Virus record (IMG/VR): IMGVR_UViG_2713896790_000009
DNA length: 5,755 nt
Reading direction: 5' to 3' (one strand)
Source: a virus
Lineage: Duplodnaviria; Heunggongvirae; Uroviricota; Caudoviricetes
Position numbers and translations under genes: made by a program. A model generated the notes under the pieces. It was not told the DNA's origin. It worked only from the letters and a program-made list of their open reading frames with translations, and did no database searches. This document shows, piece by piece, positions 2,049 to 5,755 of this stretch. Every line of letters starts with the position of its first letter. Positions within the stretch are counted from its first letter, which is position 1.

Positions 2049-4424
2049 ATGGCAGCAGTAAAAATCTCAGGTGTGCTGAAAGATGGTGCGGGAAAACCAA
2101 TACAGAACTGCACTATTCAACTGAAGGCAAAGCGTAACAGCACCACGGTACTGGTGAACACGGTGGCCTCTGAAAATCCGGATGAAGCCGGGCGTTACAG
2201 CATGGATGTTGAGTATGGTCAGTACAGCGTCACCCTGCTGGTTGAAGGTTTTCCGCCTTCACATGCCGGGACCATTACCGTCTATGAAGGTTCCAGACCA
2301 GGTACGCTGAATGATTTTCTCGGTGCCATGACGGAAGATGATGTCATGCCGGAGGCATTGCGTCGTTTTGAGGAAATGGTGGAAGAAGCGGCACGCAACG
2401 CTGAAGCCGCCTCTCAGAGCGCAGCGGCGGCAAAGAAATCCGAAACTGCAGCGGCATCATCGAAGAACGCGGCGAAAACCTCAGAAACGAATGCAGCTAA
2501 CAGCGCACAGGCGGCAGCGGCCTCGCAGACTGCATCGGCAAACTCCGCAACAGCAGCTAAAAAATCAGAAACCAACGCGAAAAATAGCGAGACAGCCGCA
2601 AAGACGAGCGAAACCAACGCAAAGTCCAGCCAGACGGCAGCGAAGACCAGCGAAACGAATGCCAAAGCCAGTGAAACTGCGGCAAAAAACAGCCAGGTTG
2701 CAGCAGCCCAAAGCGAGAGCGCGGCAGCCGGTTCTGCGACTTCAGCAGCTGGATCAGCAACTGCTACGGCTAACAGCCAGAAAGCTGCGAAGACGAGTGA
2801 AACTAACGCAAAGTCCAGCCAGACGGCAGCGAAGACCAGCGAAACGAATGCCAAAGCCAGTGAAACTGCGGCGAAAAGCAGTCAGGATGCAGCGGCTCAA
2901 AGCGAGAGTGCCGCAGCCAGTTCTGCAAGCGCGGCGGCTGCTTCTGCCACTGCATCAGCTAACAGTCAAAAAGCAGCAAAAACCAGTGAAACCAACGCAA
3001 AGGTGAGCGAAACAGCGGCAGCGAACTCAGCGAAAGCATCGGCAGCAAGCCAGACGGCAGCTAAAGCAAGCGAAGATGCAGCCAGAGAGTACGCAAGCCA
3101 GGCTGCGGAGCCGTATAAATATGTCTTACAGCCGCTGCCTGATGTGTGGATACCATTTAACGATTCGCTGGATATGATTACGGGCTTTTCGCCGTCATAT
3201 AAAAAAATTGTTATTGGTGACGATGAAATAACGATGCCTGGCGACAAGATTGTTAAGTTTAAACGTGCATCGAAAGCAACCTATATTAACAAATCTGGTG
3301 TGCTGACAGAGGCTGCCATTGACGAGCCACGATTTGAACGTGATGGCCTGCTTATTGAGGGGCAAAGAACAAACTACATGCTCAATTCGGAAAGCCCTGC
3401 CAGTTGGGGGCGATCTTCAAATATGGATGTGCCCGAAACAGGGACGGATAATTTTGGTTTTACCTATGGAAAGTTTGTCTGCAACGATTCTCTGATTGGG
3501 CAAACCTCAGCCATTAATATGGCATCAATTGCTGCAACAAAGTCAGTTGATGTCTCAGGCGATAATAAACACGTGACAACCTCATGTCGTTTTAAAACAG
3601 AACTGCAGGTAAGGTTGCGTATCCGGTTTGATAAATATGACGGTAGCGCAACAACTTTTCTTGGTGATGCGTATATTGATACACAAACGCTTGAAATTAA
3701 TATGACAGGCGGTGCTGCCTCAAGGATTACAGCGAGAGTCAGAAAGGACGAAGCTACCGGATGGATTTTTGCAGAGGCAACAATTCAGGCAATTGATGGG
3801 GAGCTAAAAATAGGCTCTCAGATACAGTATTCTCCTAAGCAGAGCGGGGCAACCGTATCTGGTGACTATATTTATCTGGCCACCCCACAAGTAGAAGATG
3901 GGCCTTGTGTATCATCTTTTATTATATCAGGAGCGACGGCGGCGACCCGCGCAAGCGATATAGTTACAGTTCCAATTAAGAATAATCTTTATAATCTTCC
4001 TTTTACGGTTCTTTGTGAGGTACATAAGAACTGGTATAAAACGCCAAATGCAGCGCCACGTGTTTTTGATACCGGCGGTCATCAAACCGGAGCGGCTATT
4101 ATTCTTGGCTTCGGTCGTTCAACAGATTACGACGGATTTCCTTATTGCGATATTGGAGGAGCTAACAGACGGGTAAACGAAAACGCATCGCTTGAAAAAA
4201 TGGTTATGGGGATGCGTGTAAAGTCAGAGCAGTCTACGTGCTCAGTAAGTAACGGGCATATATCCAGCGAAACAAAAACCACATGGTCCTGTATTCAGAA
4301 CACCGCAATTATCCGTATTGGAGGCCAGACTACAGCCGGGTTACGTCATTTATTTGGTCATGTCAGGAATTTCAGAATATGGCACAAGGCATTGACTGAT
4401 GCTCAGGTGGGGGAGTCAATCTAA
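2049..4424 (+). CDS. stf: Side tail fibre protein (Stf-like), mosaic: lambda-Stf-like N-terminal anchor, Ala/Ser/Thr/Lys-rich repetitive shaft, divergent C-terminal putative receptor-binding domain (possibly LamG/concanavalin-like jelly roll)
   Basis: ATG at 2049 with GGAG (2040-2043) upstream; the track's GTG at 2043 is a less likely start. Translation from 2049, MAAVKISGVLKDGAGKPIQNCTIQLKAKRNSTTVLVNTVASENPDEAGRYSMDVEYGQYSVTLLVEGFPPSHAGTITVYEGSRPGTLNDFLGAMTEDD, matches the lambda Stf N-terminus as I recall it. A single uninterrupted ORF ends at TAA 4422-4424. The C-terminal motif FGHVRNFRIWHKALTDAQV resembles the C-terminal strand signature of LamG-like domains; this is from memory and not verified. 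Confidence 0.85.
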   Translation: MAAVKISGVLKDGAGKPIQNCTIQLKAKRNSTTVLVNTVASENPDEAGRYSMDVEYGQYSVTLLVEGFPPSHAGTITVYEGSRPGTLNDFLGAMTEDDVMPEALRRFEEMVEEAARNAEAASQSAAAAKKSETAAASSKNAAKTSETNAANSAQAAAASQTASANSATAAKKSETNAKNSETAAKTSETNAKSSQTAAKTSETNAKASETAAKNSQVAAAQSESAAAGSATSAAGSATATANSQKAAKTSETNAKSSQTAAKTSETNAKASETAAKSSQDAAAQSESAAASSASAAAASATASANSQKAAKTSETNAKVSETAAANSAKASAASQTAAKASEDAAREYASQAAEPYKYVLQPLPDVWIPFNDSLDMITGFSPSYKKIVIGDDEITMPGDKIVKFKRASKATYINKSGVLTEAAIDEPRFERDGLLIEGQRTNYMLNSESPASWGRSSNMDVPETGTDNFGFTYGKFVCNDSLIGQTSAINMASIAATKSVDVSGDNKHVTTSCRFKTELQVRLRIRFDKYDGSATTFLGDAYIDTQTLEINMTGGAASRITARVRKDEATGWIFAEATIQAIDGELKIGSQIQYSPKQSGATVSGDYIYLATPQVEDGPCVSSFIISGATAATRASDIVTVPIKNNLYNLPFTVLCEVHKNWYKTPNAAPRVFDTGGHQTGAAIILGFGRSTDYDGFPYCDIGGANRRVNENASLEKMVMGMRVKSEQSTCSVSNGHISSETKTTWSCIQNTAIIRIGGQTTAGLRHLFGHVRNFRIWHKALTDAQVGESI
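2427..3080 (+). repeat. In-frame coding tandem repeats in the stf shaft region (about 33-bp AAKTSETNAKxSx-type sub-repeats; 189-bp tandem duplication)
   Basis: Copy 1 at about 2600-2788 and copy 2 at about 2789-2977 are offset by exactly 189 bp (63 codons), with a 68-bp perfectly identical core (2616-2683 = 2805-2872). A partial third copy starts near 2978. Encoded motif AAKTSETNAKSSQTAAKTSETNAKASETAAK recurs. Confidence 0.85.
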
Positions 4425-4705
4425 TGAAAGATTTAACACTCAAATTTGCCGACAGGGCCGACTTTTCGGCCTTTATGGATAGCACTGGCTATTATGATGA
4501 CGAGTCGATGCAGGATGATATTCTTATTGACGTGATAGGTAACGTGTACAAAGAAACCGGAGAACTGACTGAAGATGGCGAACCGGTATGTGTTAAGGAA
4601 GACGGATATTTTGTAAACGTGCGCATCATTAATGATTCGCAAATATCGTCATTATTCGATGAATACGTGGTTGCTGTTGAGCATCAACTTCGTGGCTGGA
4701 TGTGA
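4424..4705 (+). CDS. Hypothetical acidic 93-aa protein, translationally coupled to stf; candidate tail-fibre chaperone/assembly factor of unrecognised family
   Basis: ATG at 4424 overlaps the stf stop (TAATG), with GGGGGAG (4410-4416) upstream. ORF MKDLTLKFADRADFSAFMDSTGYYDDESMQDDILIDVIGNVYKETGELTEDGEPVCVKEDGYFVNVRIINDSQISSLFDEYVVAVEHQLRGWM is rich in Asp/Glu. It has no resemblance I can recognise to lambda Tfa; the function is inferred from position only. Confidence 0.6.
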   Translation: MKDLTLKFADRADFSAFMDSTGYYDDESMQDDILIDVIGNVYKETGELTEDGEPVCVKEDGYFVNVRIINDSQISSLFDEYVVAVEHQLRGWM

Positions 4706-4714
4706 GGAAGAAAA

Positions 4715-5755
4715 ATGGCTACATCGACAGTAATTCCTGATGACATCAAAACGCTAAAATCCGACGTTAGCAAATTAAAAAACGATCAAGGAAGCTACGC
4801 AACAAAATTATATGTAGACAGCAAAGATGAAATCGTTGGTGACTGGTCTGCTTCATGGTATCAGCAGGTATTGCCAACTAGCGGAGCTATATTTGGGAGA
4901 AAACTCCGCTCAACTCACAGGACGGCAGGTGTTGAGGATGCGTATTGCGAACTATACCTCAAAAAATGGATAGACAGTCCAGGTAACGCAATGGCGCGCC
5001 TTAACCTGAACGATAACGGGACAAACATTTGCTGGGACTTTACCAACCTTTATGGCGGTACGATGATTTTTCCCGGTGACAGCGGATACCTCAAAATGGG
5101 TAACTGCCTTATGTCATACAGCAAGCGTGGAAGTAACGCGCTTATTAAATTTGATTACACCGACACATTACAGATCAAATATGCCAATCATGGGTCAACC
5201 ATGACATTAAACACACAGGGAACCGCTTATGCTGGTGTTACTGCTCAATTGTGGGGCAACACCAGCCGTCCTGTTGTTTATGAAGTCGGTGTTGATGGTG
5301 GCGCTTATATGTTCTATGCGCAGAAAAATACCGATAACACCTATATGTTAAGCGTTAATGGTGCATGTCATGCCACCGCATTTAACCAGCATTCCGACCG
5401 GGATCTGAAAGACAACATTCAGGTGATCGATAATGCAACCGACCGCATCCGTAAAATGAACGGCTATACATACACGCTTAAAGAAAACGGTATGCCCTAT
5501 GCTGGTGTCATTGCACAGGAAGCTCTGGAAGCAATCCCAGAAGTTGTAGGTTCCGCAATGAAATATCAGGACGGTGCGAGCGGATCGGAAGGTGAAGAAG
5601 GTGAACGTTATTACACAGTAGATTATTCTGGTGTTACTGGCTTGCTTGTTCAGGTAGCCAGAGAGTCAGACGACAGAATAACAGCACTGGAAGAAGAAAA
5701 CGCAGAATTAAGACAAAGATTATCTGCAATTGAGGCGGCGCTTGCGTCTAAATAA
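4715..5755 (+). CDS. Tail fibre/tailspike-like protein with a C-terminal intramolecular-chaperone autoproteolytic domain (peptidase S74-like)
   Basis: ATG at 4715 with SD GAGGAAG (4704-4710); stop TAA 5753-5755. The C-terminal region HSDRDLKDNIQVIDNATDRIRKMNGYTYTL...YAGVIAQEALEAIPEVV...YYTVDYSGVTGLLVQVARE...ITALEEENAELRQRLSAIEAALASK carries the S-D-x-x-x-K-x-N-I signature with Ser227/Lys232 spacing and a terminal predicted coiled coil, as in the endosialidase and T5 L-shaped-fibre chaperone domains. The N-terminal 226 aa are unrecognised. Confidence 0.7.
   Translation: MATSTVIPDDIKTLKSDVSKLKNDQGSYATKLYVDSKDEIVGDWSASWYQQVLPTSGAIFGRKLRSTHRTAGVEDAYCELYLKKWIDSPGNAMARLNLNDNGTNICWDFTNLYGGTMIFPGDSGYLKMGNCLMSYSKRGSNALIKFDYTDTLQIKYANHGSTMTLNTQGTAYAGVTAQLWGNTSRPVVYEVGVDGGAYMFYAQKNTDNTYMLSVNGACHATAFNQHSDRDLKDNIQVIDNATDRIRKMNGYTYTLKENGMPYAGVIAQEALEAIPEVVGSAMKYQDGASGSEGEEGERYYTVDYSGVTGLLVQVARESDDRITALEEENAELRQRLSAIEAALASK

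Follow-up and report, generated by a model that had tools for sequence, protein, structure and literature searches.

The window analysed here is a 5,755-nucleotide (nt) stretch of IMG/VR virus record IMGVR_UViG_2713896790_000009 (Caudoviricetes). It corresponds to the host-range end of a lambda-like tail operon. Its genes lie in the order J C-terminus (Ig_GpJ_C), lom, stf, orf93 and a second fibre gene of 346 amino acids (aa). Across positions 4000-5755 the window shares 99.9% identity with Escherichia phage Tritos and 99.3-99.4% with PhiR63_1, HannyBb and 2G7b. We focus on orf93 (4424-4705, + strand; 93 aa plus a TGA stop), which sits directly behind stf in the position that tfa holds in lambda. 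The original prediction had placed an Asp/Glu-rich open reading frame (ORF) there, starting on the stf stop codon. We found its coordinates and the overlap to be exact, and its composition and tfa-like position were borne out as well. The 346-aa fibre gene, 9 nt past orf93, was missing from that prediction and bears on the interpretation.

The stf gene (2049-4424, + strand) encodes the side tail fibre, here the proximal fibre, of 791 aa. Its product matches PF08400, the prophage tail fibre N-terminal domain (Pfam, E 7e-67), and phrog_1419 over its full length. The frame is open from a GTG at 2043 (793 aa), but the real start is probably the ATG at 2049, which gives MAAVKISG..., a beginning that we take to be shared with lambda Stf. 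At the 3' end, the coupling junction with orf93 (4409-4426, + strand) can be read directly from the sequence. A Shine-Dalgarno (SD)-like run, GGGGGAG (4409-4415), sits within the 3' end of stf, 9 nt upstream of orf93. The stf TAA (4422-4424) and the orf93 ATG (4424-4426) share one base in TAATG (4422-4426), indicating coupled translation of the two genes. No promoter of its own was found for orf93 above background.

The orf93 product has a mass of 10.7 kDa and contains 13 Asp and 8 Glu against 4 Lys and 3 Arg (21 acidic versus 7 basic residues), with an isoelectric point (pI) of 4.05 and a net charge of about -14. This acidity is a family trait, with a pI of 4.05-4.52 among 62 unique members. 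Alignments show that orf93 has the conserved family residues M1, F8, D36, I38, G39, G61, V64, N65, R90 and W92.

We found that the orf93 product matches the phrog_1361 hidden Markov model over its full length (E 7.1e-46), with residues 1-93 aligned to positions 1-92 of the 92-position profile. The family is annotated as "unknown function" in PHROGs, and it occurs in six phage lineages: lambdoid, T1-like, Dhillonvirus, 9g/Seurat-like, T5-like and rV5-like coliphages. The earlier statement that the family was unknown therefore does not stand. Homologues are present in 181 phage records, and the variant of the window was found in 1067 of 5426 complete E. coli genomes (~20%), where it is always annotated as 'hypothetical protein'. 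The ratio of nonsynonymous to synonymous substitution rates (dN/dS) over the 45 unique alleles of the window clade is 0.29. The full-length family match, this purifying selection and this spread show that orf93 is no chance ORF but a genuine phage gene that has been conserved. The family is nevertheless small and narrow. A search of 1.84 billion proteins gave 50 representatives (clustered at 50% identity), two of which, the giant repeat proteins P0157 and P0162, were discarded as spurious short-motif matches.

The constant partner of orf93 is the C-terminal 430 residues of the upstream fibre gene. This head region of Stf consists of a conserved neck, a variable beta-sandwich and a conserved tail. 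The neck, which opens the region (3132-3377, + strand; PLPDVWIPFNDSLDM ... EGQRTNY), is its most conserved stretch, with the window residue shared by 0.8-0.98 of 92 unique sequences. The beta-sandwich (3351-3953, + strand) varies among loci. It is lectin-like and resembles the head spike fibre of a gene transfer agent (GTA), matching NF048003 (GTA_spike_fiber, E 3e-13) and Rcc01080 in PDB entry 6tb9 (phmmer, E 1e-7). The C-terminal tail (4344-4421, + strand; RHLFGHVRNFRIWHKALTDAQVGESI) shows ~0.85 conservation across loci and is also found in distant metagenomic homologues. Such heads have been termed 'galectin-like' (IrisVonRoten Gp22) or 'lectin-like head D69' (PMC11990801, PMC12143355). The lectin-like head of EmilHeitz virions is visible by cryo-electron microscopy at 7-9 Å (PMC12143355), a map too coarse for a small protein. 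EmilHeitz carries an orf93-family gene.

We surveyed IMG/VR prophages and the records of lambdoid, Drexlerviridae, Queuovirinae, T5-like and rV5-like phages. An orf93-family gene lies directly behind a homologous head in 85 loci, and then in 154, without exception; the genomic association of the gene with the head is obligate in these loci. The stop/start overlap is found in 149 of the 154 (TAATG in 58, ATGA in 91). Divergent T5-like fibres, whose heads are 35-37% identical, are followed by an 88-aa member recognised by the family profile alone (E 2e-21). The three most distant metagenomic members also overlap the end of a fibre gene, and the product of that fibre gene carries the same ...HLFGH.RN.R.WH.AL.D.Q tail. 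One distant member lies between a J-linked fibre and a repressor-like gene. On a distant metagenomic contig (L164, 116-2739), a 73-aa ORF separates the small gene from a further protein that has the same head-type domain, so that two lectin-headed proteins stand in a row.

The rV5-like phages provide a natural exchange of fibre ends. The fibre gp41 of rV5 (L160, 20200-24018) and the CarlMeissner fibre (L005, 1562-6333) share 91% identity across residues 1-1049 but differ from there on. The rV5 protein ends in a tip and a Peptidase_S74 intramolecular chaperone, with no small ORF after it. The CarlMeissner fibre ends in a lectin-like head (45% identical to that of the window Stf), followed by a 110-aa orf93-family gene. 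The head and the small gene therefore move as one cassette, which replaces an end with a built-in chaperone. We found an orf93-family gene in 36 rV5-like records, EmilHeitz included. The module is not present in rV5 itself, whose 88-aa gp29 is unrelated.

In phage 21 (L163, 21582-25416), Stf is followed by a 92-aa gene, a small membrane protein and cargo genes, and there is no second fibre anywhere in the genome. This arrangement forms a family clade of its own, with 11 unique proteins that are at most 16% divergent and a dN/dS of 0.30, compared with 0.29 in the window clade. The membrane protein follows in 45 of 45 loci with a visible downstream gene, and a distal fibre never does; 3 other loci are cut by the contig end. 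Because this clade keeps the gene without a second fibre, orf93 does not need one. A head plus small gene without a distal fibre is found in the phage 21 clade, in rV5-like phages and in the context of P0158. The membrane protein of the clade is itself conserved across these ~45 prophage loci, with 97 aa and two transmembrane segments (L003, 5292-5585), and the cargo genes sitABCD, for an iron/manganese transporter, come after it.

The second fibre gene of the window (4715-5755, + strand; 346 aa) begins 9 nt past orf93, has an SD sequence of its own, GAGGAAG (4704-4710), and runs to the final base of the window. Its product matches the tail fibre family phrog_4563 (E 3e-220) and carries a Peptidase_S74 intramolecular chaperone domain (PF13884, E 5e-14; residues 227-278, 5393-5548, + strand). 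The protein begins with a conserved peptide (MATSTVIPDDIKTLK; 4715-4759, + strand), a putative docking peptide with the motif M-x-T-x-T-x-I-P-x-D-I-x-x-L-K. This start is common to the distal fibres of lambdoid, T1-like, Queuovirinae and T5-like phages. We scanned IMG/VR for the motif with a degenerate DNA pattern, independently of orf93, and found an orf93-family gene at most 420 nt upstream in 116 of 117 hits; the last hit is cut by a contig end. Distal fibres that bear the motif thus depend on the small gene in one direction.

The layout of three genes in the window is that of IrisVonRoten gp22-gp23-gp24 and AKFV33 orf137-136-135, and IrisVonRoten Gp23 is the orf93 homologue. The BASEL authors model Gp24 as attached to the proximal fibre Gp22. 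Both phages have been published with two-protein fibres, in which the middle gene is given no role. In DT57C (ltfA; L161, 2980-6210) and TrudiGerster (L162, 2480-5878), the proximal and distal parts are fused in one chain. Residues 1-205 of DT57C LtfA resemble AKFV33 ORF137 1-209, and residues 508-1073 resemble ORF135 2-548. These fused fibres lack all three elements together: the head, the small gene and the N-terminal peptide of 20 residues.

We also searched for a known function of orf93. The product and 21 relatives had no match in Pfam at E<=1, Caudo_TAP included, and NCBIfam gave none for the orf93 product. Comparison of the family profile with lambda Tfa by hhalign returned a probability of 0.07%, and comparison with the T5-type collar protein LtfC was negative. 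PDB searches by phmmer and by profile linked orf93 to no known family; a GAPDH match (E 0.13) was dismissed as chance. The Peptidase_S74 domain is absent from both orf93 and Stf (Pfam). We found no defence, toxin, regulator or DNA-binding match in PADLOC, Pfam or NCBIfam. These results uphold the original prediction in that orf93 shows no Tfa similarity and no match, among the databases searched, to an unrelated function such as a toxin/antitoxin or a transcription factor. Beyond phrog_1361, the sequence searches yielded no known family.

An AlphaFold2 (AF2) model of the orf93 product, built on a 22-sequence alignment, was confident, with a pLDDT (predicted local distance difference test) score of 87.6 and a predicted template modelling score of 0.74. 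The predicted fold is a generic alpha/beta sandwich in the order beta-alpha-alpha-beta-beta-alpha: one strand, a pair of helices, a long beta-hairpin ending in an acidic tip, and a last helix. No part of the family varies more in length than this tip (residues 44-54). Less order is predicted for the conserved C-terminal ...R-x-W tail (pLDDT 67), as expected of a tail that binds a partner. A BFVD structure search with the model returned uncharacterised phage proteins only, and the predicted fold neither supports nor excludes any role. Our literature search found no reports of binding, folding or virion composition for any member of the family. The small protein is not mentioned in the Eligo chimeric-Stf papers, the Cronobacter Drexlerviridae paper or either of the BASEL papers.

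We compared the pairwise identities of orf93 with those of its neighbours. Within the Stf head, the Spearman correlation was 0.21 over the last 140 residues, 0.38 over the middle part and 0.27 over the neck, and it rose to 0.51 over the final 25 residues of Stf. The highest value, 0.75, was obtained with the first 30 residues of the distal fibre. Alleles of orf93 that are 93-100% identical to that of the window are paired with heads ranging from 40% to 100% identity, and nearly the same docking peptide occurs with orf93 variants just 43-45% identical. These correlations are weak evidence, because both neighbours are adjacent, the pairs are not independent, the stf neck and tail are natural recombination joints, and similar peptides accompany divergent orf93 proteins. 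It is nevertheless clear that orf93 does not track the variable, presumably receptor-binding, surface of the head. If it binds Stf, it must therefore bind the invariant parts, and the neck is a candidate site.

Gene order, conservation and cassette exchange indicate that orf93 very probably encodes an accessory protein of the lectin-headed fibre end. With moderate confidence, we further propose that its product helps in trans to assemble or stabilise the C-terminal end of Stf, and that the end formed by head and orf93 would serve as a docking platform for the 346-aa fibre. The protein would be made by translation coupled to that of Stf. Its binding sites on Stf may be the neck (PLPDVWIPFNDSLDM...), the tail (...HLFGHVRNFRIWHKAL) or both, which are the invariant parts of the head, and its own conserved C-terminal ...R-x-W tail would probably contribute to the contact. 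The trimeric proximal fibre would require it for the completion or stabilisation of its C-terminal end, the job that Tfa does for lambda Stf and that the S74 intramolecular chaperone does for sister fibres. The 346-aa fibre would dock on this end by its N-terminal peptide, giving a two-part (proximal and distal) side fibre.

We favour an assembly partner because the gene changes places with an intramolecular chaperone, because Stf has no other candidate assembly device and because the gene is kept where there is no distal fibre. Other fibres at these loci have devices of their own, S74 in the distal fibre and Tfa for lambda Stf, and the window Stf has orf93 alone. The original prediction had proposed for orf93 a likely stoichiometric partner role, as either a dedicated chaperone of the divergent Stf tip or an adaptor. 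The link to this part of Stf is supported by its place directly behind the head everywhere, by the overlap in 149 of 154 loci and by the rV5-like cassette. The co-evolution implied by 'dedicated' is contradicted by nearly constant alleles (93-100% identical) beside heads only 40% identical.

Several observations weigh against an assembly role. Remote homologues of the head (RcGTA Rcc01080, RcapMu gp58 and a cyanophage protein) have no orf93-like gene behind them, so the beta-sandwich does not intrinsically need one. The orf93 protein does not co-vary with the variable head (Spearman 0.21-0.38; the same allele with heads 40% identical), unlike Tfa-type chaperones, whose C-terminal part tracks the fibre tip. 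Its type follows the N-terminus of the distal fibre better (0.75), which fits a connector equally well. Finally, it resembles no known chaperone in sequence or in fold.

The protein might instead stay in the virion as a structural collar and form a socket for the N-terminal peptide of the distal fibre, capping the fibre end where no second fibre follows. We regard this as possible, though doubtful. All 116 evaluable distal fibres with the motif lie behind an orf93-family gene, the conserved cassette consists of orf93 plus ~30 residues of the next gene with variable sequence on both sides, single-chain fibres lack head, orf93 and peptide together, and overlapping translation suits equimolar structural partners. 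The closer correlation with the start of the distal fibre (0.75 for its first 30 residues, against 0.21-0.38 for the head) points the same way, but it can be explained by linkage and by the recombination joints in the stf neck and tail, and nearly the same docking peptide is served by orf93 variants 43-45% identical. Moreover, purifying selection is equally strong without a distal fibre (phage 21 clade, rV5-like phages, P0158 context). The two proteins to be joined are thus not always both present; the dependence holds in reverse, from distal fibre to orf93, in 116 of 116 cases. Since the head always co-occurs with orf93, the head itself could be the socket. Mass spectrometry of AKFV33 virions found ORF137 and did not report the small protein, although only four bands were cut from a 10% gel. 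In its most specific form, which we put forward only tentatively, orf93 would be a virion protein of a new kind, a 10-kDa acidic collar at the neck of the lectin-headed proximal fibre and the socket for a universal 15-residue plug (MxTxTxIPxDIxxLK), by which siphoviruses of at least four lineages would attach interchangeable distal fibres non-covalently.

Two further explanations separate orf93 from fibre assembly. As a cargo gene unrelated to the fibre (a moron, anti-defence gene, regulator or toxin-antitoxin), it would simply ride in the fibre operon. It is small, acidic and without an annotated function, and morons are often found near stf in lambdoid phages, such as lom here and sitABCD in phage 21. 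But a gene fixed behind one fibre domain in six unrelated lineages, virulent phages included, with a conserved stop/start overlap, which swaps together with the head, has no PADLOC, Pfam or NCBIfam match and shows no promoter of its own above background, is improbable as cargo. Least probable of all is a tip adhesin, in which orf93 would bind the fibre end and contact the host receptor itself, like gp38 of T2-/S16-type phages. Its position behind the fibre gene is right for this, and the family varies most in length at the tip of the long beta-hairpin (residues 44-54). However, orf93 is far more conserved than its neighbours (93-100% identity beside heads of only 40%), its dN/dS is 0.3 with no hypervariable segments, and in the window a further fibre would be attached beyond it.

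The proposed assembly partner can be compared with known systems. Like Tfa, T4 gp38 and Mu gpU (Caudo_TAP, PF02413), orf93 is encoded directly downstream of the fibre gene in the same operon, and its expected target is likewise the C-terminal end of a trimeric fibre without an intramolecular chaperone. It differs in size (93 aa versus 194 for lambda Tfa), shows no sequence relation, has a fold without a chaperone match, does not co-vary with the fibre tip and is paired with another kind of fibre end, the lectin-like beta-sandwich head. The S74 domains of K1F endosialidase, T5 pb1 and rV5 gp41, like that of the 346-aa fibre of the window, fill the equivalent slot. In rV5-like phages, an S74 end and an end of head plus orf93-family gene are alternative C-terminal cassettes on a 91% identical fibre. 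These intramolecular chaperones are auto-cleaved. S74 is covalently attached to its fibre, whereas orf93 is a separate polypeptide without S74 similarity.

The two-part fibres of T5-like phages (IrisVonRoten Gp22/Gp24; AKFV33 ORF137/ORF135) share with the window a lectin-headed proximal fibre, an orf93-family gene and an IPxDIxxLK distal fibre with an S74 end. DT57C differs in having one fused LtfA chain, which LtfB joins mid-fibre, and no small gene. The gp35 and gp36 proteins form the joint of the T4 long tail fibre and are a precedent for separate small proteins between proximal and distal half-fibres. They are much larger than orf93, which also occurs with nothing to join, and the likeness is one of logic. 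Both are named among the four T4 long-tail-fibre proteins (PMC12143355). The head spike fibre Rcc01080 of RcGTA (6tb9) is homologous to the central beta-sandwich of the Stf head, but it is a capsid appendage. The phage homologues examined outside the enterobacterial set (RcapMu and a cyanophage) have no orf93-like gene behind them, and both the opening portion of the conserved neck and the LamG-like C-terminal portion of Stf are missing from them.

Other features of the window were noted. A strong, terminator-like hairpin (2011-2041; 8 pairs, 7 of them G-C, and a T run) lies directly 3' of lom and 2-8 nt before the stf start, so read-through or antitermination must be required for Stf expression. 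In the stf shaft, a 189-base-pair (bp) unit is repeated 2.2 times in tandem (2586-3002; 84% matches). The unit is composed of 21/42-bp sub-repeats that code for SETNAK-type heptads, and the repeat is a likely source of variation in fibre length. Two masked runs of 50 N bases, at 813-862 in the J C-terminal region and at 1907-1956 in lom, appear as X runs in the translations.

Public annotation of these modules is inconsistent. The distal fibre is called 'putative lateral tail fiber chaperone' in KarlJaspers (L001, 5270-5947) and VogelGryff (L002, 5267-6433), a label that presumably derives from its S74 domain. The orf93-family ORF is labelled 'tail fiber protein' in SelmaRatti (L155, 4810-5076) and IrisVonRoten (L158, 4501-4779), and the BASEL 2025 text names the IrisVonRoten proximal fibre both Gp22 and Gp23. 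Phage records MG065635-MG065692, OR847733 and OR848352, named as Campylobacter or Listeria phages, contain sequences that match fibre modules of rV5-like or T5-like E. coli phages at 99-100% identity, and the records are probably mislabelled or mixed.

The family was already catalogued, and earlier work had remarked on the two-fibre arrangement; the consistent three-part module, and how its small gene behaves, appear not to have been described before. Lectin-headed lateral fibres, which are thought to read O-antigens, are widespread among T1-, T5-, 9g- and rV5-like relatives, and this variant is found in about one-fifth of complete E. coli genomes. In these fibres orf93 has been annotated as 'hypothetical' and ignored in published models. 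For chimeric Stf and lateral-fibre swaps, it matters which accessory genes must travel with the fibre end, and orf93 is a candidate requirement. If orf93 acts as a chaperone, it would be a third solution beside Tfa and S74, structurally unrelated to both; if it acts as a connector, it would define a modular fibre-to-fibre joint, a plug and socket for the exchange of host range. In either case, orf93 would be a structurally new version of a known type of phage protein.

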